Shown here: positions 3,406-54,968 of the stretch, one piece after another
Layout of the letters: every line of letters starts with the position of its first letter
Numbering within the stretch: the first letter of the stretch is position 1
Source: an uncultured Actinomycetes bacterium
GTDB lineage: Bacteria > Actinomycetota > Acidimicrobiia > IMCC26256 > DASPTH01
Length of the DNA: 64,000 nt
Assembly: GCA_963720765.1 (NCBI GenBank)
Contig: CAVRGS010000013.1
Location: 76,854 to 140,853 of the forward strand
Direction of reading: 5' to 3'
The notes under the pieces: generated by a model
What the model saw: only the letters and a program-made list of their open reading frames with translations
What the model was told of the DNA's origin: nothing
The model's database searches: none
Made by a program: the position numbers and the translations under genes

Positions 3406-4563
3406 TCACACGATCCTGAGTGGACGGAAGCACGTGCGCACGTCGGGCACGTAGAGGTCGGGGCACTCGAAGGCAGCGAAGTGCCCGCCACGTGGCATCT
3501 CCGCGAAGTGTGAGAGCGGGTACTGCATGGCGAACCAGCGTTCCGACGTGCGCATGATCTCCTTCGGGTAGCGCGCGTACCCGACCGGCTGCGTCGGCTT
3601 CGCCAGGGGATCGATGCCGCCGTTGGCGAAGCCCTGCATCACCTCGTAGTAGAGACGACCCGCCGAATGCGCGGTGGCGGTGACCCAGTACACCATCAGG
3701 TTGTCGAGCAGCTGGTCCTTGGTGAACGAACGTTCGACGTCGCCGTCGCAGTCCGACCACGTGCGGAACTTCTCCACGATCCACGCCGCCAGTCCGGCGG
3801 GGGAGTCGTCGAGTGCGTAGCCGATGGTCTGCGGCTTGGTCGACTGCTCCTTCATGTAACCGGAGTCGACCGCGTCGTACGCGCTCATGCCGTCGAGGAA
3901 GCCCTGCTCCTCGGGTGTGACGTCCTCGGTCATCGGGATCGGTGGCGCCATGTTGAGGTGGATGCCTGCGCAGTGCTCGGGATCGGCGAGCGCGACCTCA
4001 CGCGTCACGAAGTAGCCCCAGTCACCGCCCTGCGCCACGTAGCGGTCGTACCCGAGCCCCGCCATGAGCTGCGCCCATGCGCGCGCGATGCGGCCGGGGT
4101 GCCAGCCGCGCTCGACGGTCGGGCCCGAGAACCCGTACCCGGGGAGCGATGCGACGACCACGTGGAACGCATCGGCGTCGTCACCGCCGTGCGCAGCGGG
4201 ATCCCGCAGCGGTTCGATCACGTCGAGGAACTCGACGAACGAGCCCGGCCAACCGTGCGTGAGCAGCAGCGGCAGCGCGCCCTCGACCGCGGACGGCGCG
4301 TGGATGAAGTGCACACCGGTGCCGTCGATCTCGGCGCGGAAGTGGTCGAACGCGTTCATGCGCGCTTGGCGCGCCGACCAGTCGTACTCCTCGGCCCAGT
4401 AGGTGACCAGCTCCCGCAGGTACCCGAGCTCGGTGCCGTAGTCCCAGCCGGCGTCGGGGAGCTGCTCGGGGAAGCGCGTGTTGTGCAGACGCGCCCGCAG
4501 GTCGTCGAGCATCGCGTCGTCGACGTCGACCCGGAACGGTTCGATGGTGAGGTTTCCGCTCAT
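3406..4563 (-). CDS. Epoxide hydrolase (microsomal-type, N-terminal EH domain plus alpha/beta hydrolase)
   Basis: 385-aa intact ORF with FRVDVDDAMLDDLRARLHNTRFP, HGWPGSFVEF and GGDWG motifs. Confidence 0.9.
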   Translation of the reverse strand: MSGNLTIEPFRVDVDDAMLDDLRARLHNTRFPEQLPDAGWDYGTELGYLRELVTYWAEEYDWSARQARMNAFDHFRAEIDGTGVHFIHAPSAVEGALPLLLTHGWPGSFVEFLDVIEPLRDPAAHGGDDADAFHVVVASLPGYGFSGPTVERGWHPGRIARAWAQLMAGLGYDRYVAQGGDWGYFVTREVALADPEHCAGIHLNMAPPIPMTEDVTPEEQGFLDGMSAYDAVDSGYMKEQSTKPQTIGYALDDSPAGLAAWIVEKFRTWSDCDGDVERSFTKDQLLDNLMVYWVTATAHSAGRLYYEVMQGFANGGIDPLAKPTQPVGYARYPKEIMRTSERWFAMQYPLSHFAEMPRGGHFAAFECPDLYVPDVRTCFRPLRIV

Positions 4564-27296: not shown

Positions 27297-27352
27297 CGTC
27301 GCGGCGTCGGCGTCGCGGCGTCGCGGCGTGGTGGCGTGGCCGGCGTCGGCGG
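27297..27352. repeat. Degenerate GC-rich direct repeats (gcgtcgcg-like units)
   Basis: cgtcgcggcgtcggcgtcgcggcgtcgcggcgtggtggcgtggccggcgtcggcgg directly after the synthetase stop. There is no complementary arm. Confidence 0.4.
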
Positions 27353-27395
27353 TAGCGTTCGTCTCGGTCGTGAGGACGCGCGGAGGAGCACCGGC

Positions 27396-28807
27396 ATGAC
27401 GACGTACGACAGGTTCTACATCGACGGGGCGTGGGTCGCGCCCGCCGGCCGCGACACGCTCGACGTGATCGATTCGGCCACCGAGGAGGTCTTCGCGACC
27501 ATCCCCGCCGGCACGCCCGACGACATCGACCGTGCGGTCGCGGCGGCGAAGGCCGCGTTCCCGGCGTGGTCGGAGACGTCGGCCCCCGAGCGCGGCAAGC
27601 TCCTCCTGCGCGTCGCGGAAGAGCTCGAGGCACGTCGCGACGAGATCGCCGACGTGATGACCCACGAGGTCGGCATGCCGAAGCCGCTCTCGGCCGCGAT
27701 CCAGGTGGGCACCGGCATCTCCGCGTTCCGCAACGCGTCGGAGCTCGCGTCGACCTTCGCGTTCGAGGACGACTCCGAGGGCTTGATCGTCAAGGAACCG
27801 ATCGGCGTGGTCGGCTGCATCACGCCGTGGAACTACCCGCTCAACCAGATCGGGGCCAAGGTCGCGTACACGTTGGCCGCAGGCTGCACGGTCGTGCTCA
27901 AGCCGTCAGAGGTCGCGCCGGTCAACGCGTTCATCCTCGCCGAGATCATCGACGACCTCGGGTTCCCGCCGGGTGTGTTCAACCTGGTCACCGGGCTCGG
28001 TCCGGTGGTCGGGGAAGCGCTCGCCGCGCATCCCGACGTCGACATGGTGTCGTTCACGGGATCGACCGCGCGGGTCGACGTGTCTCGGAGCTGGCCGCGC
28101 CGACGATCAAGCGCGTCGCGTTGGAGCTGGGCGGCAAGTCGCCCAACGTGCTGCTCGACGACGCCGACTTCGACAAGATGGTGCCCGCCGGTGTCGGAGC
28201 GGCGTACGCGAACTCCGGACAGACGTGCAGCGCCCTCACCCGCATGATCGTCCCGCGGTCGCGCCTCGCCGAAGTCGAGGAGCTGGCGAAGCAGGCGGCC
28301 GAGGCGTACGTGGTCGGTGACCCGTTTGCCGACGGCACCACGCTCGGTCCGCTGGTGTCAGGGGTCCAGCAGGAGCGAGTGCGTGGCTACATCCAGAAGG
28401 GTCTCGACGAGGGTGCCACCTTGGTCACGGGCGGCGTCGGTGCACCCGAGGGACTCGAGCAGGGCTTCTTCGTGCAGCCGACGATCTTCTCGAACGTCAC
28501 CACCGACATGACCATCGCGCAGGAGGAGATCTTCGGCCCGGTCCTCGTGCTCATCCCGTACGACACCGACGACGAAGCGGTCGAGATCGCCAACGACACC
28601 GTGTACGGCCTCGCCGGCGCGGTGTCGGGGAGCGACGAGCGAGCCAAGGCCGTGGCGCGCAAGATCCGCGCCGGTCAGGTGCGCGTGAACGCGGGTGGCT
28701 ACTTCCCTGCCGCGCCCTTCGGTGGCTACAAGCAGTCGGGTCTGGGGCGTGAGCACGGCGCCCACGGTCTCGAGGAGTTCCTCGAGGTCAAGGCGCTCTT
28801 CGTCTGA
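27396..28807 (+). pseudogene. Aldehyde dehydrogenase with a -1 frame break near 28066-28068
   Basis: GGAGGAG RBS then ATG 27396. ..VSFTGST then the frame changes to [26 protein letters not shown]. Catalytic region NSGQTCSA and EEIFGPV follow. Confidence 0.8.
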
Positions 28808-29403: not shown

Positions 29404-29868
29404 TCACGCGGGACGGTCGACGTTCGGACTCGGCACCACGACGACCGGACAGGGACTGCGCTCCGCACAGCGCTGGCTCACGGATCCCAGCAGAAGCCCC
29501 GCGAAGCCGCCTCGTCCGCGAGTCCCGACGACGAGCAGATCGGCCCGTTCGGCGAGGTCGACGAGCACGTGCGCGGGTTCACCTTCCACCACGATCGGAT
29601 TGATGCGCACCGCGTGCTCGGTCGGCAGCGTGGCGGCCTCGATCGCCTCGTGCAGCGTCCGCTTCGCGAGCTCCGCGGAACGCGCCACGATCAACGCTTC
29701 CGCGTCGGACCCGACGTCGATCCATGCCAACCCCGATGGGTAGGCGAGCACTGCGTCGATAACGTCGTCACCGATCGCTTGGATGGCGGCCCACTCGAGC
29801 GCTCGCTGCGAGTGCGGTGAGCCGTCGATCCCGACGACGATGCGGCGGGCCCCGGAACGATCGGTCAC
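29404..29868 (-). CDS. Universal stress protein (single Usp domain)
   Basis: RIVVGIDGS.., VVGTRGRGGFAGLLLGSVSQRCAERSPCPVVVV. GTG 29868 behind AAGGGAGA. Confidence 0.85.
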   Translation of the reverse strand: MTDRSGARRIVVGIDGSPHSQRALEWAAIQAIGDDVIDAVLAYPSGLAWIDVGSDAEALIVARSAELAKRTLHEAIEAATLPTEHAVRINPIVVEGEPAHVLVDLAERADLLVVGTRGRGGFAGLLLGSVSQRCAERSPCPVVVVPSPNVDRPA

Positions 29869-29921: not shown

Positions 29922-29935
29922 GGGCCGAAGGTCAC
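29922..29935. promoter_or_regulatory. DosR-box-like 5-4-5 inverted repeat, copy 1
   Basis: GGGCC GAAG GTCAC, about 60 nt upstream of the Usp start at 29868. Confidence 0.5.
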
Positions 29936-29963
29936 CTCGTCGGTGTCGTGTCCGCATGCGGTC

Positions 29964-29977
29964 GGGACTTCCGACCC
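29964..29977. promoter_or_regulatory. DosR-box-like inverted repeat, copy 2
   Basis: GGGAC TTCC GACCC, about 69 nt upstream of ATG 30039 and about 100 nt upstream of the Usp start. Confidence 0.5.
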
Positions 29978-30038
29978 TGGAAGGACGGCAGCCGGTGGAG
30001 CACGGTGGGATCGACCATCGAGCACCGAGGTGAACACC

Positions 30039-30293
30039 ATGCGTCCAGTCGTGCAGCCGGGCAGCGATGCCCCGACCGTCGAGGTGATCGCGTTCCGCCA
30101 CGGGCGGGAGATCGCCCGTGAGCTCTACGACACCCCCGAAGCGGCGGCAGATGCAGTCGACCGCTGGTGCGAGACGACGGGCGTGATGTGTCAGGTCGAC
30201 GACCTCTCGGTGCAGCACCAGCCGACCGACGTGCGCGACCCGTCGCCCGACGACGCGTGGGACGACGGGGACGAACGCCGGGACGACGACTGA
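30039..30293 (+). CDS. Hypothetical small acidic protein (84 aa)
   Basis: ATG behind GAGGTG, high GC3, no recognisable domain. The longer 29817 start is antisense to the Usp gene. Confidence 0.45.
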   Translation: MRPVVQPGSDAPTVEVIAFRHGREIARELYDTPEAAADAVDRWCETTGVMCQVDDLSVQHQPTDVRDPSPDDAWDDGDERRDDD

Positions 30294-30302
30294 CGGTGCT
30301 CC

Positions 30303-30764
30303 TCACGACGGCGGAAGGGGTGGGAGCGCGGACTCGTCGGGAACGAGGCGCCGCCCGGTGATCGTCCGGACCCCGAGGCGGAGGTAGCTCGTGCGCGGGC
30401 CCTGCGCCCACGGAGTGACGCGCAGCGTCTCGAGGCGCCGCAACTCGGCCGGGTCCTCGACGTGTGCGACGGGCCCGTTCACGAGCACGCTCCATCCTTG
30501 GTGGTCGGTCTCGTCGAAGTCGTCGACCTCGAAGCCGACCTGACCCGAGTACCGCGACGCGAGGACGCTCGACGACGCCTCGGTCCGGAACACGATGTCG
30601 TCGTCGTCGACGACGTAGTTCACCGGAAGTGCGACCGGGCCACGGGCGTCGACGAACACCACGCGTCCGACCGGACGCGTGCGCAGCAGCCGCCGGCACT
30701 CGTCAGGATCGAGGACGACGAGTTGGTGGAGCGGGGGGCCACCCGGCGCGTGGGCGTCGTTCAC
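30303..30764 (-). CDS. PPOX-family (pyridoxamine 5'-phosphate oxidase-like, FMN/F420 split-barrel) protein
   Basis: LDPDECRRLLRTRPVGRVVFVDARGPVALPVNYVV pattern. GTG 30764 overlaps the upstream stop (GTGA). Confidence 0.8.
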   Translation of the reverse strand: MNDAHAPGGPPLHQLVVLDPDECRRLLRTRPVGRVVFVDARGPVALPVNYVVDDDDIVFRTEASSSVLASRYSGQVGFEVDDFDETDHQGWSVLVNGPVAHVEDPAELRRLETLRVTPWAQGPRTSYLRLGVRTITGRRLVPDESALPPLPPS

Positions 30765-31543
30765 CGCTGGAGCCTGACGACGAAGACCGGACAGGGGCTG
30801 TGGTGCACGACATCCATGGCCACACTCCCCATGACGACACGACCGAAGCCGGTTCGTGCGTGCGTCGTGAGCGCCAACATGGTCGCGGGAAGTTCACGCG
30901 CGCACTCGGAGATCGCGGCAGATGGGAAGTCGTCGTGGAGATCGATCGTCGGCGTGCGGCGCCGTTCGCCGTGGAGCTGGGCGAGCGCAGCGTCGAACTG
31001 GCGGGTGGGTTCGACACTCGCGGGCACATCGAGCGGGTGGAAGACGCACAGCAGCGAGAGGTCCATGTGGAGCGCGTCACTCCACGTCTCGGCCGGCGCG
31101 AGGATCGCGTCGGACGCGCCGCCCACCCAACACGCGACGAGTCGCGCCGGATCGTGCCACCAGTCCCGTTCGCAGTTCGGCCCGACCAACAACACCGGAC
31201 CGTCGACGTTGCGCACGACCTCGGTGGCGACGCTGCCCAACAACGGTGCTGCCACGCGACCGCGACCGTGCGTCGTCATGCAGACGACGGCGTCCGGGTG
31301 CCGCCGGACGCTGCGAGCGATCTCGCCCGCGGGATCACCCGTGGAGCATTCTGCCTGCACCGCGCCGTCGGTGCGCGCGGCGAGCGCGTCGACGTACGGC
31401 CGCACCCGCTCGGCGTCGTCGACGTCGACCGCCAGGAGCACGACGTCACAGGTGTCGAGCTTGTCGGCCACCACCAGCGCGCAGTCGAGCGCCCGCTCGG
31501 CGTCCTGCGAACCGTCGACCGGGACGATCAGCGTCTTGGGCAT
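30761..31543 (-). CDS. Tandem universal stress protein (two Usp domains)
   Basis: ATG 31543 behind GAGGAGG. TLIVPVDGS.. plus a second half ending TTHARTGFGRVVMGSVAMDVVHHSPCPVFVV. Confidence 0.85.
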   Translation of the reverse strand: MPKTLIVPVDGSQDAERALDCALVVADKLDTCDVVLLAVDVDDAERVRPYVDALAARTDGAVQAECSTGDPAGEIARSVRRHPDAVVCMTTHGRGRVAAPLLGSVATEVVRNVDGPVLLVGPNCERDWWHDPARLVACWVGGASDAILAPAETWSDALHMDLSLLCVFHPLDVPASVEPTRQFDAALAQLHGERRRTPTIDLHDDFPSAAISECARELPATMLALTTHARTGFGRVVMGSVAMDVVHHSPCPVFVVRLQR

Positions 31544-31593
31544 GGGAACCTCCTCGTTCAGGGTTCCAGCGTCTCCCTCCGCGCGTCTCGGTG

Positions 31594-31613
31594 ATAGGGC
31601 CCGAAGGCCCCAA
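31594..31613. promoter_or_regulatory. DosR-box-like inverted repeat, copy 3 (shared divergent promoter of the regulator and the tandem Usp)
   Basis: atA GGGCC CGAA GGCCC CAA; perfect 5-bp arms; 14 of 20 positions match the M. tuberculosis consensus as I recall it. Confidence 0.55.
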
Positions 31614-31649
31614 TGCCGGGCGGGCGCTGCCGGGTCGGCCCGGTCGCGC

Positions 31650-32345
31650 ATGGCTCCTCTACCCTGCGTGATCGTGACGGGCACGGGTGTCATCCGGGTG
31701 TTCCTCCTCGACGATCACGAGGTCGTGCGCCGCGGCGTGCGAGAGCTGCTCGACGCCGAGGACGACATCGAGGTGGTCGGCGAGGCCGACACCGCGGAGT
31801 TGGCGCTCGCCCGGGTGCCGGCGGTCCGCCCCGACGTCGCGATCCTCGACGTCCGGTTGCCCGACGGTGACGGGATCGCGGTGTGCCGGGAGATCCGCTC
31901 CTCGTCCGAGGAGGTGGCCTGCCTGATGCTCACGTCGTTCTCCGACGACGAGGCCCTCATGCAGGCGATCATGGCCGGCGCCGTCGGCTACCTGCTCAAG
32001 CAGATCCGGGGCAACGACATCGTCGACGCCGTGCGGCGGGTTGCGGCAGGCGCGTCGCTGCTCGATCCCGCGACGGTGGCGCGCGTCACCGAGCGCCTCC
32101 GCCGGCCGTCCGAGGAGGATGAGCGCCTGGCGCGGCTCACCAGCCAGGAGCGCAAGATCCTGGCGCTCATCGCCGACGGCCTCACGAATCGCCAGATTGC
32201 CAACGAGATGCACCTGGCGGAGAAGACGGTCAAGAACTACGTGTCGAACCTGCTCACCAAGCTCGGCATGGAGCGGCGCACGCAGGCGGCGGTGTTCGCG
32301 ACGCGTCTCGACCAACAGGCCCGTCCCCCCGCTCCCGGCGGCTGA
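31650..32345 (+). CDS. DevR/DosR-like NarL-family response regulator
   Basis: Receiver VFLLDDHEVVRRG, DVAILDVRLPDGDG, GYLLK. LuxR HTH LTSQERKILALIADGLTNRQIANEMHLAEKTVKNYVSNLLTKLGMERRTQAAVFA. The start could instead be GTG 31668 or 31674. Confidence 0.9.
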   Translation: MAPLPCVIVTGTGVIRVFLLDDHEVVRRGVRELLDAEDDIEVVGEADTAELALARVPAVRPDVAILDVRLPDGDGIAVCREIRSSSEEVACLMLTSFSDDEALMQAIMAGAVGYLLKQIRGNDIVDAVRRVAAGASLLDPATVARVTERLRRPSEEDERLARLTSQERKILALIADGLTNRQIANEMHLAEKTVKNYVSNLLTKLGMERRTQAAVFATRLDQQARPPAPGG

Positions 32346-32372
32346 CGTCGGCGCGACGCCGAGTGCCGCGAT

Positions 32373-32705
32373 TCAGAGGGCCGGATCGCCGGGCGGTGGC
32401 CCGACGCGGAACCACGGCGCGGCGTCGAACGTCAGCGGATCCGCGCCGGCTGGGAACACCTCGTCGGAGCGCACCCGGAACGACGGCTCGGTGGATGTTC
32501 CCTCGGGGTGCTCGGCGACGCGGTAGGCGAGCTCACCGCGGAATTGGTACCAGGGGCGCGTGGAAGCCCCGGAGGGATGACCCGCCGCGGGATACACCAT
32601 CGAGCCGAGCACCTCGAAGGCCGCCACCCGCGCACTCCCACGTGGGTGCTCCTCGGTCGCGTACCAGCCCGTGTGCGGCACACCGATCGCGCGCATCTCG
32701 GCCAT
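32373..32705 (-). CDS. Hypothetical 110-aa protein with four internal ~23-aa repeats
   Basis: High GC3 in this frame. Repeats are WYATEEHPRGS / VYPAAGHPSGAS / AYRVAEHPEGTS / VFPAGADP. Two DosR-like boxes lie upstream. Confidence 0.6.
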   Translation of the reverse strand: MAEMRAIGVPHTGWYATEEHPRGSARVAAFEVLGSMVYPAAGHPSGASTRPWYQFRGELAYRVAEHPEGTSTEPSFRVRSDEVFPAGADPLTFDAAPWFRVGPPPGDPAL

Positions 32706-32740
32706 CGCTCCAGTAATGCTCGATGCGACCGCACGATGTA

Positions 32741-32754
32741 GGGCCGAAGGTCCC
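32741..32754. promoter_or_regulatory. DosR-box-like inverted repeat, copy 4
   Basis: GGGCC GAAG GTCCC, centre about 42 nt upstream of ATG 32705. Confidence 0.55.
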
Positions 32755-32781
32755 CTGTGCGCCGGTGGCCCGGGGGCGCGG

Positions 32782-32795
32782 TGGACCTTCGCCCC
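32782..32795. promoter_or_regulatory. DosR-box-like inverted repeat, copy 5
   Basis: Plus strand TGGAC CTTC GCCCC (reverse complement GGGGC GAAG GTCCA). Its centre is 41 bp from copy 4. Confidence 0.5.
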
Positions 32796-32912
32796 GGTCG
32801 GACGGGTCCGATGGTGCGCATCCCGTGAGGTGGCTACGCAGCCGATGTGTGGGCACGAGCCGACCTCGTGGACCCGTTGCTCGACATCGAACCGATGCTC
32901 GCCGGCTGAGCG

Positions 32913-34346
32913 TCAGGAACGGTTCGGCACCTGCCATTCCAGGATCGTCCCGCCGCCGGGGCGAGCGCTCACGAGACAGCGCCCGCCGAGGCGCACCGCC
33001 CGTTCCGACAGGTTGCGGATCCCGTTGCCCTCGGTGATCACGGACGGCAGCCCGCGACCGTCGTCGACGACCCGCAGGGTGACGAAGTCGCCGGCATTCG
33101 CGATCGACAGGTCGACCGACGACGCCTCGGCATGGCGGGCGACGTTCGAGATCGCTTCGCGTACGACGGGGAGCAGCTCGGCGGCCACCGATTCGCGCAT
33201 CGCTTCGACGGGTCCGTCGAAGCGGATTCGTGGCTCGAAGCCCAACGCGTCGCGGTGGTCGTCGCAGATGCGCAGGATGTCGGCCCGGACACCCGGGAGG
33301 TCGCGGGCATCCGACTGCAAGCTGAAGATGACCGACCGGATCTCGCGGATGGTCTCGTCGAGCTCGTCGACCACGTTGCCGAGCCGTTCACCTTGGTCGG
33401 GATCGGCGCTGCGAGCCGCGACGCTCTGCACCGTCATGCCGGCGGCGAAGAGCTTCTGGATGACCACGTCGTGCAGATCGCGCGCGATCCGCTCGCGATC
33501 CTCGACGATCCGAAGGTGCTGTTCGGCGCGACGGAGGCGTTCCTCGGTCGCGTTCCGCTCGCGCAGGTCACGGGCGATCTTCACGAAGCGAACCGGGGCG
33601 CCGTCATCGCCCGGTATCGCCTGCATGAGGATCTCGACGGGGATGTCGGTGCCGTCGCGATGGCGGTGGACGGTGGTGAACGTGATCGACGACCGTTCGC
33701 CGGCTTCCAACGGTGCGAGCAACTCGTGCAACGAGTGCTCGGTGAACTCGGGGACGATGTGCAGCATCGTCATCTGCGTGAGCTCGTCGCGCGTGTACCC
33801 CACCTGCCCGACCGCGCCCTCGTTCGCGTAGACGAAGCGGAGCGTCGGGACTTCGAGGATGAGCACCGCGTCGCTCGTTGCGTCGAGTGCGTCGCGCACG
33901 ACCCGCCGCTCGGCTTCGGCCGCGACGCGCTCGGTGATGTCGCGCACCACGGCCACGACGCTCAACCCGTCGTCGCCCGGCAACGGGCTCAGGCTGATCT
34001 CGACGGGGAACTCGGTGCCGTCGGCTCGGCGTCCGGACAGCGTCAGGCCCGCGCCCATCGACCGCAGCCGAGGTTCGGCGCGAAAGCGCGTGCGGTGCGC
34101 GCGGTGGACCTGCTGCAGCCGCTCCGGGAGGAGCTCGTCGACGGAACGGCCGTTCAGGTCGTCTCGCCCGAAACCGAACAGCGCTTCGGCTCGCCGGTTG
34201 GCGAAGACGATGCGGCCGTCCTCGCCGGTCAGGAGGATGCCGTCGGGCGCCGCATCGACGAGCGCGTGGAACGCGGCTTCGTCGACTGCCCGGTCCCGGG
34301 CACCGTGTGTGGCAGTCCCCGTCGCCGGCCGTTCGGTGGTGGGCAT
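32913..34346 (-). CDS. Sensor histidine kinase, PAS-PAS-HisKA_3-HATPase_c
   Basis: PAS cores GRRADGTEFPVEISLSPL and HRHRDGTDIPVEILMQAI. H-box RERIARDLHDVVIQ. ATPase motifs EAISNVARHA, DDGRG and GNGIRNL. ATG 34346 is 9 nt after GGAGG. Confidence 0.9.
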   Translation of the reverse strand: MPTTERPATGTATHGARDRAVDEAAFHALVDAAPDGILLTGEDGRIVFANRRAEALFGFGRDDLNGRSVDELLPERLQQVHRAHRTRFRAEPRLRSMGAGLTLSGRRADGTEFPVEISLSPLPGDDGLSVVAVVRDITERVAAEAERRVVRDALDATSDAVLILEVPTLRFVYANEGAVGQVGYTRDELTQMTMLHIVPEFTEHSLHELLAPLEAGERSSITFTTVHRHRDGTDIPVEILMQAIPGDDGAPVRFVKIARDLRERNATEERLRRAEQHLRIVEDRERIARDLHDVVIQKLFAAGMTVQSVAARSADPDQGERLGNVVDELDETIREIRSVIFSLQSDARDLPGVRADILRICDDHRDALGFEPRIRFDGPVEAMRESVAAELLPVVREAISNVARHAEASSVDLSIANAGDFVTLRVVDDGRGLPSVITEGNGIRNLSERAVRLGGRCLVSARPGGGTILEWQVPNRS

Positions 34347-34447
34347 GGACTCCAACCTCCGTCCGGACCCGATCCGACCAACCTAGACGGTGCGCCGCGC
34401 GTCCATTCCGGCCGGACTCGCGACGCCACTTCCCGCGGAGGTGCGCG

Positions 34448-34888
34448 TCAGCGGAAGAACAGGGCCGGGATGGGCTGCTCCGGTTGGACCGCGTGGAGTC
34501 GCCGTCCGGTGATCGCGAAGGGCTCGAGGACGAGCCACCGGTCACGCCGGTCGGTCACCCAGGGGTGCGGGTCGAACAGGGCGCGGAAGTCGCCGGCATC
34601 GGGGTCGACCCGCAGGAGCATCCCGCGTACGAGCACCGACCAGCCTTCGCGCGCGTCGTGGTCGACGTGGTCGATCTCGAACGCTGCCGGGATCCCGTCG
34701 CGGTCGAGCAGGTTGCCGGGACGGGTGCGGAGCGCGATCCAGGTGCGGCCGGGCGCCTCCACCAGCCGGTAGTTGACCGGCACGATGACCGGGCCGCCGT
34801 CGATGTCGACCCCGATCCGGCCGAAGTCTCCGTAGCGAAGGAGTTCCAAGCAGTCGTGGTGATCGATCTCGCCGAGGGTGCCGTGCAT
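34448..34888 (-). CDS. PPOX-family split-barrel flavoprotein (second copy)
   Basis: IDHHDCLELLRYGDFGRIGVDIDGGPVIVPVNYRL. ATG 34888 behind GGGAGG. Confidence 0.8.
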   Translation of the reverse strand: MHGTLGEIDHHDCLELLRYGDFGRIGVDIDGGPVIVPVNYRLVEAPGRTWIALRTRPGNLLDRDGIPAAFEIDHVDHDAREGWSVLVRGMLLRVDPDAGDFRALFDPHPWVTDRRDRWLVLEPFAITGRRLHAVQPEQPIPALFFR

Positions 34889-34944
34889 CGCGCTACCTCC
34901 CGCTGGTGCACCTCGACGCAATCACCTTCTCGGGCGCTCGGTCA

Positions 34945-34958
34945 GGGCCGAACGTCAC
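34945..34958. promoter_or_regulatory. DosR-box-like inverted repeat, copy 6
   Basis: GGGCC GAAC GTCAC, centre about 63 nt upstream of ATG 34888 (PPOX then kinase). Confidence 0.5.
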
Positions 34959-35147
34959 AGCCGCACCATGCGGGTCGGAGCGCCCGGCGAGCCATCGGCG
35001 CCGGCCACGATCGCCTGGTTCCGGTTGGGGGGCCTCCATGACCTCGGGGATCGCTGCCAGTCGACGGATCGCATGAGATCCATCGGGAGCTTCCTCGTCG
35101 CGAACACCGGACCACTCGATCGTTGCCGCGACGCCAGGGCACCGCCG

Positions 35148-35161
35148 GAGGCGATGGTCCC
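35148..35161 (-). promoter_or_regulatory. DosR-box-like inverted repeat, copy 7 (minus-strand reading)
   Basis: Minus strand GGGAC CATC GCCTC. Forms a 10-bp perfect inverted repeat (cgatggtccc / gggaccatcg) with copy 8. Confidence 0.5.
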
Positions 35162-35179
35162 ACCGCAGGCCTGCAGATC

Positions 35180-35193
35180 GGGACCATCGGCTC
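35180..35193 (+). promoter_or_regulatory. DosR-box-like inverted repeat, copy 8
   Basis: GGGAC CATC GGCTC, centre about 72 nt upstream of ATG 35258. Confidence 0.5.
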
Positions 35194-35257
35194 TGTCGGC
35201 GCGGGGCGAGTCGCCGGACACTGGACATGAGCGTTGCTCGCAACGAGGAGGACCACC

Positions 35258-35464
35258 ATGAGGGCGAACATCGGAGATCGACTGGTCATCAAGGGCCACC
35301 ACGTGGGGGAGCCCGACCGCGACGCAGAGATCCTCGAGGTCCACGGCGACGACGGCGGGCCGCCGTACCTCGTCCGATGGGACGACGACGGTCACGAAGG
35401 TCTCTTCTTCCCTGGTTCGGACGCGACCATCGAGCACTACCCGCGCCACTCGCAGAAGCACTGA
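35258..35464 (+). CDS. DUF1918 domain protein
   Basis: ATG behind GAGGAGGA. MRANIGDRLVIKGHHVGEPDRDAEILEVHGDDGGPPYLVRWDDDGHEGLFFPGSDA matches the DUF1918 pattern as I remember it. Confidence 0.75.
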   Translation: MRANIGDRLVIKGHHVGEPDRDAEILEVHGDDGGPPYLVRWDDDGHEGLFFPGSDATIEHYPRHSQKH

Positions 35465-35478
35465 GCGGCGGCCGCGAG

Positions 35479-36168
35479 GTGACCGTGCCGACGCGGGTGA
35501 ACCGTGACGTCGATGTCGGGCTCCGCAGCCTCGCGCTGTCCGGCCACCTGACCGTTCCCGACGACGCCGCCGGCGTGGTGCTCTTCGTGCCCGAACCGGG
35601 AGCCATCGCTCCCGCCGATGGGCTGGCCGGTCGGTTCGTCGACGCCGGGCTCGGGACGCTGCAGGTCGACCTCGTCACGGCGGACGAGCGGGTTCGCGAG
35701 GCCGACGGCCCGGTTCGCGACATCGAGCTGCTCGCGGTGCGCGTGCTGGCAGTCACCCGGTGGCTGCACGCGCACCCGGACACGCGAGACCGCTCCGTCG
35801 CGTACTTCGGGTCAGGTGTGGGTGCCGACGTCGCGCTGCTCGCCGCCGCTGAGGACTCGACGGTGGTGGCACTGGTCGCGCAGGATGGTCATCTCGACCT
35901 CGTGGCGTCGCGTGTGTCCGCCGTGCAGTCACCGACGCTGCTCGTCGTCGACGGTACGGACGGCTCGGTGTCCGGCGCGAATCGCGATGCCATACGACGA
36001 CTCCGGTGCGAGCACGCCCTCGTCGTGGTACCGGCGGCGTCGGACCCGACCGCAACTGCGAGCGCGACCGACGCCGTCGCCGACCACTCCATCGAATGGA
36101 TCACGCGATACCTCCGCCCGGTGGGGCGCTCCGACACGACGACGATCCGAGAGGACGAGAGTTCATGA
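35479..36168 (+). CDS. Alpha/beta hydrolase, dienelactone-hydrolase-like
   Basis: VVLFVPEPG.., SVAYFGSGVGADVALLAAA.., PTLLVVDGTDG. The start GTG 35479 is tentative. Confidence 0.55.
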   Translation: MTVPTRVNRDVDVGLRSLALSGHLTVPDDAAGVVLFVPEPGAIAPADGLAGRFVDAGLGTLQVDLVTADERVREADGPVRDIELLAVRVLAVTRWLHAHPDTRDRSVAYFGSGVGADVALLAAAEDSTVVALVAQDGHLDLVASRVSAVQSPTLLVVDGTDGSVSGANRDAIRRLRCEHALVVVPAASDPTATASATDAVADHSIEWITRYLRPVGRSDTTTIREDESS

Positions 36169-36401
36169 GAGCAACGACCGACACGCGCTGCGACCTGAAG
36201 TGCATCGCGTCGCCACACGTGGCGGTCGGCACGACCCGAGCAGGCGCGGGTGTCGCGTCGGCTGCGTTGGGTACCAAGGTGTACATGAATCTCGTGACCA
36301 TGGAACAGGCGTACCCCGCCATCCAGGTGCCGGTGGATGGCGTGGGTAGGCTGCTCCTCGACGCGGCCCGCGGGGTCTCGCACCCGGGGGAGCTGTCATG
36401 A
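36165..36401 (+). CDS. Hypothetical 78-aa protein, translationally coupled on both sides
   Basis: ATGA overlap with the hydrolase stop (36165-36168) and with the next start (36398-36401). High GC3; no recognisable domain. Confidence 0.4.
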   Translation: MRATTDTRCDLKCIASPHVAVGTTRAGAGVASAALGTKVYMNLVTMEQAYPAIQVPVDGVGRLLLDAARGVSHPGELS

Positions 36402-36856
36402 GCCGACGCGTCATGGTCCTGCTCGGAGGCCTGGGTGTCTTCGTCGTGTTGTTCGCCGCGATCCAGCTCGTGCCGATCCGGGTGACCAACCCGCCGGTGC
36501 AGCACGAGCCCACCTGGGACAGCCCGGCAACGCGGAAGCTCGCGGTCACCGCCTGCTACGACTGCCACAGCAACGAGACCACCACCTACTGGTGGGAGGA
36601 CATCGCTCCGCTGTCGTGGTGGATCACGAACCACGTCGACGAGGGCCGCTCGGCGCTCAACTTCTCCGAGTGCACCCAGGGCCGCGGCGAGAACGAGGCC
36701 GCGGAGACGATCAGGAACGGGTCGATGCCGCCCAGCTACTACACCTGGCTCGGCCTCCACTCCGACGCGAAGCTGACGGCGGCCGAGAAGCAGCAGCTGG
36801 CCGACGGGCTGCAGGCGACGCTCTCGGGGTGGAACTGCGGACACGGCGGCGGCTGA
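36398..36856 (+). CDS. Membrane-anchored CxxCH heme-motif protein (Haem_bd-like)
   Basis: N-terminal TM helix VMVLLGGLGVFVVLFAAI, CYDCH motif, SMPPSYY. Confidence 0.7.
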   Translation: MSRRVMVLLGGLGVFVVLFAAIQLVPIRVTNPPVQHEPTWDSPATRKLAVTACYDCHSNETTTYWWEDIAPLSWWITNHVDEGRSALNFSECTQGRGENEAAETIRNGSMPPSYYTWLGLHSDAKLTAAEKQQLADGLQATLSGWNCGHGGG

Positions 36857-36867
36857 GCGCGTAGAAC

Positions 36868-37185
36868 GTGCCGGTGCACGCCCACGGTCAGCTCGCGCCC
36901 CGTACCCTCGCGCCCACCGAAGGAGAAGCAACGATCGAGCTCGCTCGCACGGCGCAGTTCTCCGTCGAGCAGATCCTCAGTGGCCGTCTCGAAGTGCCCC
37001 AGGACCACGAACAGGACCACGACGAGTGGGTCGTGCTCCTCAACGGCGCCGCGGTGCTCGAGGTCGACGGCGTGACGCACGACCTGAGCGCGGGCGACTG
37101 GTGGTTGCTCCCCGCGGGCGCGCCGCACCGGCTGGTGCGCACCGAGCCGGGGACGAGCTGGCTGGCGGTCAGATCGACGCGCTGA
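36868..37185 (+). CDS. Cupin domain protein
   Basis: HDEWVVLLNGAAVLEVDG..WWLLPAGAPHRL. The start is uncertain (no clear RBS). Confidence 0.65.
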   Translation: MPVHAHGQLAPRTLAPTEGEATIELARTAQFSVEQILSGRLEVPQDHEQDHDEWVVLLNGAAVLEVDGVTHDLSAGDWWLLPAGAPHRLVRTEPGTSWLAVRSTR

Positions 37186-40649: not shown

Positions 40650-42862
<2,213 letters not shown>

Positions 42863-54860: not shown

Positions 54861-54968
54861 GATGGTCGACTCCGCTCCGGCGTGGTGGTCGTCGGGGTCG
54901 CCCGGCCCCGCCTCGGCTGCGTCTCGTTCACAGACGAGATCCCATCACCCTGGACAGCGAAAGTCAAT

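Follow-up and report, generated by a model that had tools for sequence, protein, structure and literature searches.

Predicted DevR/OsdR-type operator boxes in a stress-gene cluster of an uncultured actinomycetotal lineage

Introduction

Do the short inverted repeats that recur upstream of stress-type genes in an uncultured actinobacterium reveal a regulon, and which protein would bind them? The question is raised by a stretch of 64,000 nucleotides, hereafter the window, from contig CAVRGS010000013.1 of an uncultured Actinomycetes bacterium (assembly GCA_963720765.1). Near its middle lies a cluster of genes encoding Usp proteins, PPOX-like flavoproteins, a NarL/LuxR-family response regulator and a sensor histidine kinase. 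The intergenic DNA of this cluster holds eight copies of a 14-nt box, made of two 5-nt half-sites separated by 4 nt, which a first-pass annotation had described as a GC-shifted DosR box. Judging from the sequence, we consider it highly likely that these boxes serve as operators in a DevR/DosR/OsdR-type two-component regulon, and the regulator encoded in the cluster is very probably the protein that would bind them.

Two systems serve as references. In Streptomyces coelicolor, OsdR (SCO0204) is the functional orthologue of DevR, with the consensus 5'-AGGGCCGATCGGCCCT (Urem et al. 2016, PMC5069765). OsdR binds DevR targets of Mycobacterium tuberculosis, and predicted Streptomyces sites were bound in electrophoretic mobility shift assays (EMSA). 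OsdR sites cluster around osdR and precede genes of the Usp, PPOX (SCO0214), nitroreductase and nar types, and usp genes also belong to the M. tuberculosis DevR regulon (PMC5069765). In the DevR half-site, GGGAC, the third G and the C are essential; poorly conserved secondary sites in helical phase with the primary site are the rule in M. tuberculosis, and the proximal box is found at −42.5 (Chauhan et al. 2011, PMC3177182).

Results

Eight boxes in the intergenic DNA of the cluster

Script extraction recovered all eight 14-mers where they had been reported, in + orientation at 29922, 31597, 32741, 34945 and 35148, and in − orientation at 29964, 32782 and 35180. They are intergenic without exception, as had been claimed, and fall in four gaps totalling 852 bp, whose limits were taken from flanking genes fixed by Pfam matches. 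Gene calls based on G+C content at third codon positions (GC3) were not used for statistics; one of them, an open reading frame at 30462-32345, was rejected as a false call. The box centres had been placed about 40-100 nt before the start codons. The lower end of this range stands, and the measured values extend from 42.5 to 110.5 nt (42.5-71.5 nt for the proximal box of each unit). Scores (in bits) and ranks in the list below refer to the OsdR matrix described in the next section, and the genes named are predicted targets.

29922..29935 (+), box 1, GGGCCGAAGGTCAC: Usp-proximal, centre 60.5 nt from the start at 29868; score 11.0, rank 3; repeat family D13
29964..29977 (−), box 2, GGGACTTCCGACCC: orf84-proximal, centre 68.5 nt from the start at 30039, 42 bp from box 1; exact match to GGGNCNNNNGNCCC; score 4.8, rank 21, moderate support
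31597..31610 (+), box 3, GGGCCCGAAGGCCC: single box for two divergent units, the tandem-Usp/PPOX operon at 60.5 nt and the regulator gene at 46.5 nt (ATG at 31650); score 10.9, rank 4
32741..32754 (+), box 4, GGGCCGAAGGTCCC: 42.5 nt upstream of orf110; the best box, score 15.3, rank 1
32782..32795 (−), box 5, TGGACCTTCGCCCC: may be a weak secondary site, box 4 being 41 bp away; score −1.9, rank 347
34945..34958 (+), box 6, GGGCCGAACGTCAC: precedes the PPOX2(-kinase) unit by 63.5 nt; score 13.0, rank 2
35148..35161 (+), box 7, GAGGCGATGGTCCC: may be a weak secondary site, box 8 being 32 bp away; score −1.8, rank 320
35180..35193 (−), box 8, GGGACCATCGGCTC: 71.5 nt upstream of the DUF1918 operon; score 7.3, rank 8

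Most boxes are hybrids of two half-sites, with GGGCCG on one side, GGGACC on the other and a spacer of the GAAG type. Boxes 7 and 8, read in the same orientation, are alike at 13 of 14 positions. All eight copies carry G3, C5, G10 and C12, which are the positions essential for DevR (PMC3177182). The DosR-type reading of the first-pass annotation is supported by the 5-4-5 geometry, by these invariant G and C residues and by the DevR-like regulator described below. As for the GC shift, the C at half-site position 4 and the G/C-rich spacer are indeed present, but they do not make a new variant: the box equals the OsdR consensus, AGGGCCGATCGGCCCT, which was published in 2016. On the other strand, the core of box 4 reads GGGACCTTCGGCCC, identical to the sites listed for SCO0167/SCO0216 and for SCO5979 (PMC5069765).

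Placement of the boxes in the window

The window has a G+C content of 69.3%, and the bare pattern GGGNCNNNNGNCCC is not enriched in it: 4 occurrences were seen for 3.75 expected from shuffles and, when one mismatch was allowed, 48 for 99 expected. Since raw pattern counts showed no excess, we tested placement instead, with an external matrix. This palindromic matrix rests on the 25 site sequences that Urem et al. (2016, PMC5069765, Table 1) give for OsdR in S. coelicolor, and is independent of the copies picked in the first-pass annotation. Its four top matches in the 64 kb are all among the eight boxes (32741, 15.3 bits; 34945, 13.0; 29922, 11.0; 31597, 10.9). The 852 bp of cluster intergenic DNA thus hold four matches of at least 10 bits, for 0.069 expected, and none of 5000 dinucleotide shuffles reached four. 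Moreover, the five matches in the window that reach 10 bits are clustered in a span of 6.7 kb (P ~5e-4). An unbiased repeat search also recovered the three strongest boxes, as the 17-mers AGGGCCGAAGGTCACCT, AGGGCCGAAGGTCCCCT and AGGGCCGAACGTCACAG of family D13. The observation is confirmed strongly for four boxes and moderately for two (35180 and 29964), and their placement is non-random.

The first-pass annotation had found no convincing copy outside 29.9-35.2 kb, which is nearly right. The fifth-best match of the OsdR matrix (36642-36657, AGGGCCGCTCGGCGCT, 10.5 bits) is located in the coding sequence of Haem_bd, precedes the cupin gene by 226 bp, and may be an intragenic site or a chance match. 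A matrix made from the eight window sites themselves (leave-one-out) is circular and was used only to seek further copies; it gave matches at 41533 and 56979, both within genes. Beyond the cluster, the core pattern is matched exactly at one place only (54895-54908, GGGTCGCCCGGCCC), with a cytochrome P450 gene on one side and a divergent TetR-family gene on the other. This copy was rejected as a box of the regulon, having an unrelated spacer and a poor OsdR-matrix score, and is probably unrelated (possibly a TetR operator) or a chance occurrence. G+C stays at 0.68-0.72 throughout 24-42 kb, so that no compositional island was found there, and an Rfam scan of the whole window returned no family.

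The regulator of the cluster

The regulator aligns end-to-end with M. tuberculosis DevR/DosR (PDB 3C3W), its best PDB match (E 9.6e-75, 254 bits); the next-best solved relative is VraR (7e-45, 156 bits). Identity to DevR is 58% over 206 residues and rises to 75% over the last 57 aligned residues, in the C-terminal helix-turn-helix (HTH) region. Both the phospho-acceptor Asp54 and the stretch EKTVKNYV are kept. By hand count, this stretch carries K179, K182 and N183, which we take to be the base-contacting residues of the DosR-DNA crystal structure. On NCBIfam, the regulator gave sub-threshold matches to MadR and NarL only, and no match to a DevR-specific model. Judged by sequence, the regulator is a DevR/DosR/OsdR orthologue, whose true start may lie a few codons downstream.

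The types of gene that follow the boxes also agree with this assignment: Usp genes, PPOX-like genes and the regulator gene itself carry OsdR sites in S. coelicolor (PMC5069765).

Conservation of the boxes in related loci

Boxes were then sought around orthologues of the regulator, in a total of 160 loci. A genome scan provided 80 loci with regulators 61-85% identical to that of the window (Acidimicrobiia metagenome-assembled genomes, or MAGs, along with Streptomyces, Kitasatospora, Kribbella, Frankia, Micromonosporaceae, Streptosporangiaceae and others), and a metagenome scan provided 80 more, none above 79% identity in the regulator. A box of at least 9 bits was present within 260 bp upstream of the regulator gene in 44 of 149 loci, compared with 4.8% of control windows. 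Among the 80 genome loci, boxes precede 11 of the 42 Usp and 9 of the 30 PPOX homologues, for a background of about 5%. In the 1.29 Mb surrounding regulator orthologues, the 14-mer of box 4 is found without mismatch 19 times, for 0.09 expected; those of boxes 29922 and 34945 occur twice each near these orthologues, for 0.04 expected.

The closest locus, L001, comes from an uncultured Acidimicrobiia MAG (regulator 85% identical) and is syntenic over Usp, tandem Usp, regulator, orf110, kinase and PPOX2. It has boxes in the corresponding gaps, namely AGGGCCGGAGGTCACC between tandem Usp and regulator, GGGACGTTCGTCTC upstream of PPOX2, GGGACTTCGGACCC upstream of the kinase and a pair upstream of a Usp-orf110 unit. 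The non-coding flanks of the window and L001 are barely alignable (MAFFT), and the boxes are kept nonetheless. By its likeness to L001, the window probably derives from an Acidimicrobiia-related organism. Upstream of its second tandem Usp gene (3444-3483), L001 also has the elements GGGAC-AAG-GTCAC and GGGAC-CTT-GTGCC, with a 3-nt spacer and starts 21-22 bp apart, which may be operator variants with altered half-site spacing.

A kinase with PAS instead of GAF sensor domains

The kinase of the cluster has the Pfam architecture PAS-PAS-HisKA_3-HATPase_c. It has no GAF domain, and therefore departs from the architecture of DevS, DosT and OsdK, in which N-terminal tandem GAF domains (GAF-A carrying the haem) precede HisKA_3 and HATPase_c. 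Its ATPase domain is nevertheless nearest to those of DosT and DevS (3ZXQ/3ZXO, ~1e-17). For the first PAS domain, the nearest matches are oxygen sensors of the haem-PAS kind, namely FixL (~1e-12) and DosP. In the alignment with BjFixL, the proximal haem ligand His200 and Arg206 have conserved counterparts, and the distal Arg220 has none.

The regulator orthologues of Kribbella, Streptomyces and an Acidimicrobiaceae MAG have GAF-type kinases encoded next to them. With the sequence HPPM taken, by assumption, as the marker of a GAF-type sensor, 42 of 59 complete kinases beside regulator orthologues carry it; only three are of the PAS type, and these belong to the nearest relatives of the window (L001, L081 and L082).

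We tentatively propose, as a possibility, a sensor-domain swap on a dormancy/hypoxia circuit. In a small Acidimicrobiia-related clade (the window, L001, L081 and L082), the conserved DevR/OsdR regulator and its boxes may have been re-coupled to a FixL-like haem-PAS kinase, replacing the GAF-haem kinases of mycobacteria, Streptomyces and most other Actinomycetota. The strongest operator would then drive the orphan family orf110, and the DUF1918/Haem_bd/cupin operon would be a lineage-specific target. Both the binding of haem and the pairing of kinase and regulator are what we infer here.

Genes of the cluster

The genes around the boxes are listed below, with the targets as predicted.

29404..29868, minus strand: Usp gene (Pfam Usp, 7e-29), predicted target of box 1
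30039..30293, plus strand: orf84, small acidic protein of 84 codons without Pfam or NCBIfam match, predicted target of box 2
30303..30764, minus strand: Pyridox_ox_2 (Pfam), PPOX-like, overlapping the tandem Usp gene by 4 nt; predicted box 3 operon
30761..31543, minus strand: tandem Usp gene (Pfam), in an operon with the PPOX-like gene (30303..31543) predicted to be under box 3
31650..32345, plus strand: NarL/LuxR-family response regulator (Pfam Response_reg and GerE)
32373..32705, minus strand: orf110, 110 codons without Pfam or NCBIfam family match, predicted to be under boxes 4 and 5
32913..34346, minus strand: sensor histidine kinase (Pfam PAS-PAS-HisKA_3-HATPase_c)
34448..34888, minus strand: PPOX2, the second Pyridox_ox_2 (Pfam, 8e-16), predicted to be under box 6
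35258..37185, plus strand: putative DUF1918 operon (Pfam), a same-strand run downstream of boxes 7 and 8 that comprises the next four genes
35258..35464, plus strand: DUF1918 (Pfam)
35461..36168, plus strand: orfA, without assigned family
36398..36856, plus strand: Haem_bd (Pfam)
36868..37185, plus strand: cupin (Pfam)

No box is present in the 100-nt gap between PPOX2 and the kinase gene, and the two are probably co-transcribed. The product of orf110 is lineage-restricted, with 2 homologues in a database of 5.8e9 clusters in addition to the L001 copy (53%), and contains internal W-Y/F...HP.G-like repeats. In units with a Shine-Dalgarno leader, the proximal box is centred about 60-71 nt before the start codon; for orf110, which is maybe leaderless, the distance is 42.5 nt.

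Two further observations concern the neighbouring DNA. A 28-nt inverted match (25 of 28 positions complementary) links 31962-31989, in the regulator coding sequence (QAIMAGAVG), with 34990-35017, in the gap between PPOX2 and DUF1918; a rough estimate assuming independent, identically distributed positions puts its chance at ~1e-3 for a region of 5.5 kb. A decayed regulator gene was sought in the 369-bp gap before DUF1918 and none was found; the match could be a relic fragment or an element for antisense pairing. Upstream of the cluster, an aldehyde dehydrogenase gene (27336-28807) is split over two overlapping frames, 27336-28247 covering Aldedh positions 1-216 and 27431-28807 positions 213-460. 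As read, the sequence indicates a frameshift near 28.0-28.25 kb, due to a pseudogene or an assembly error.

Box pairs and alternative explanations

Three regulatory regions have paired boxes, in phase and not adjacent, and two have a single box. The pairs are spaced by 42 bp (boxes 1 and 2), 41 bp (4 and 5) and 32 bp (7 and 8), close to 4, 4 and 3 helical turns. Phased weak partners would rationalize boxes 29964, 32782 and 35148, and this is the weakest part of the case. Several facts weigh against an operator role as we propose it. Boxes 32782 and 35148 score −1.9 and −1.8 bits (ranks 347 and 320 of 64,000), a level matched by about 1 position in 200, so that neither is supported by its sequence alone; what speaks for them is solely the stronger box nearby, at 41 and 32 bp respectively. 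Promoters of the M. tuberculosis regulon each have at least two boxes about 21 bp apart; here, no second box was recognizable within 48 bp of boxes 3 and 6, nor any degenerate box midway in the pairs spaced by 41-42 bp. Pair spacing is not conserved, the equivalent L001 pair being 25 bp apart, and two L001 boxes have a 3-nt spacer. A scan for sigma-70-like promoters gave 0 matches and a search by eye for −10 hexamers gave nothing clear, so that an activator overlapping −35 is something we infer. Finally, as the kinase has none of the GAF domains of DevS, DosT and OsdK, the signal may differ, and a second kinase could be encoded elsewhere in the genome. In the relatives L082 and L099, tandem boxes are 22-23 bp apart.

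Pairs of inverted boxes might also act as RNA or DNA hairpins rather than as protein operators: boxes 4 and 5 could end the PPOX2-kinase transcript, and boxes 7 and 8 could sit in a leader region. These two pairs lie in the inverted repeats I22 (32741-32763 / 32773-32795, 23-nt arms, 78% complementary) and I21 (35139-35161 / 35180-35202, 83% complementary), which fold better than shuffles (−41.9 kcal/mol, z −2.8, and −48.2 kcal/mol, z −3.4, respectively). On the minus strand, boxes 4 and 5 follow the kinase stop at a distance of at least 118 nt, and the L001 pair is kept as an inverted repeat at 25-bp spacing, a change that a hairpin tolerates better than phased dimers do. However, any two inverted copies of a near-palindromic operator form such a hairpin automatically. 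Boxes 1 and 2 fold no better than shuffles (z −0.4 and −1.0), single box 6 likewise (z −0.3), no T-run follows any hairpin, and a terminator scan finds nothing at the boxes. Hairpins would also leave unexplained why the same 14-mer is found upstream of regulator, Usp and PPOX genes across Actinomycetota, and why it matches EMSA-bound sites. We regard this explanation as hardly probable; a hairpin role is possibly a secondary one.

It could also be imagined that the boxes are operators of another NarL/LuxR-type or dimeric regulator encoded elsewhere, the cluster regulator being merely one of its targets. The window shows 64 kb of a genome, Actinomycetota carry many NarL-family paralogues, and the NCBIfam result (sub-threshold MadR and NarL, no DevR-specific model) leaves room for this. 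Yet the cluster regulator is far nearer to DevR than to other solved NarL-family proteins (254 versus 156 bits), with an identical EKTVKNYV. The boxes found upstream of its orthologues in 30% of the 149 loci, in many lineages, are the expected signature of autoregulation, and the same motif has been bound experimentally by OsdR and DevR; a different binder is very unlikely. Chance would be a further answer, short GC-rich palindromes being common in DNA of 69% G+C and these having been picked by eye. It would account for a GGGNCNNNNGNCCC frequency not above that of shuffles and for the two of eight copies that are at background level. For the four to six best copies, it is contradicted by a highly non-random placement under a matrix derived outside the window, by the conservation of boxes in the syntenic relative and in the 160 related loci, and by the unbiased repeat search that recovers the three strongest copies; boxes 5 and 7, taken individually, could be chance occurrences. 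As an account of the whole set, chance is extremely unlikely.

Discussion

If the boxes are operators of the DevR/OsdR type, the circuit would operate as follows. The PAS-PAS kinase would sense a signal, probably oxygen or redox state, through haem in its FixL-like first PAS domain, and would phosphorylate Asp54 of the regulator. A dimer of the latter would bind the 16-bp palindrome-like box A-GGGMC-N4-GKCCC-T, with one HTH per GGGNC half-site, as expected from the DevR structure and the identical EKTVKNYV. The proximal box would stand near −40 of the likely start sites and overlap −35, as in class II activation and like the DevR box at −42.5. Because of this position, activation through contact with RNA polymerase seems the most likely mode. 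The induced set would comprise the Usp genes, both genes for PPOX-like flavoproteins, orf84 and orf110, the DUF1918 operon and the genes of the regulator and the kinase. The single box between tandem Usp and regulator would provide autoregulation, as in Streptomyces and M. tuberculosis. Weak partner boxes, 41-42 or 32 bp away, could be filled cooperatively, in the manner of DevR secondary sites.

The locus would thus be a DevR/OsdR regulon in an uncultured actinomycetotal lineage, an ordinary further example of a known hypoxia/stress regulon. It would extend the hypoxia/dormancy circuit known from DevR in M. tuberculosis and OsdR in Streptomyces to an uncultured, probably Acidimicrobiia, lineage, and it opens no new question or mechanism. 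The operator is nearly letter-identical across Actinomycetota, which makes the published OsdR matrix a usable predictor of regulons in MAGs. The sole point of wider interest is the exchange of GAF for PAS sensor domains on a conserved output which, if true, would be a natural rewiring of the signal that triggers a dormancy-type response.

Among known systems, OsdR/OsdK of S. coelicolor (SCO0204/SCO0203) has the same 16-bp box shape, C at half-site position 4 and a G/C-containing spacer. Its sites lie around the regulator gene, and it targets, among others, its own regulator gene as well as Usp and PPOX-family genes. Among the related loci, Streptomyces regulators are 63-67% identical to that of the window and have strong boxes about 100-150 bp upstream. 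The window differs in its kinase, with two PAS domains in place of GAF domains, and in its boxes, mostly half-site hybrids with a GAAG-type spacer. Its visible cluster lacks nitrate reductase and transporter genes, orf110, orf84 and the DUF1918/Haem_bd/cupin run are extra predicted targets, and the host is probably of an Acidimicrobiia lineage.

With the DevR(DosR)-DevS/DosT system of M. tuberculosis, the window has in common the 5-4-5 inverted repeat, Usp genes as predicted targets, divergent promoters with a common box, and strong primary sites with poorly conserved, helically phased candidate partners. Unlike the Dev box, the window boxes mostly have C in place of A at half-site position 4, and their spacer is not rich in A/T; partners are 32-42 bp apart instead of about 21 bp, the window shows no hspX, nitroreductase or nar genes, and the kinase has PAS rather than haem-GAF domains. 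FixL/FixJ and Escherichia coli DosP resemble the window system through the sensor domain of the kinase and its equivalents of His200 and Arg206. This likeness does not extend beyond the sensor domain: the core of the kinase is HisKA_3/DevS-like, and the regulator is DevR-like and not FixJ-like.

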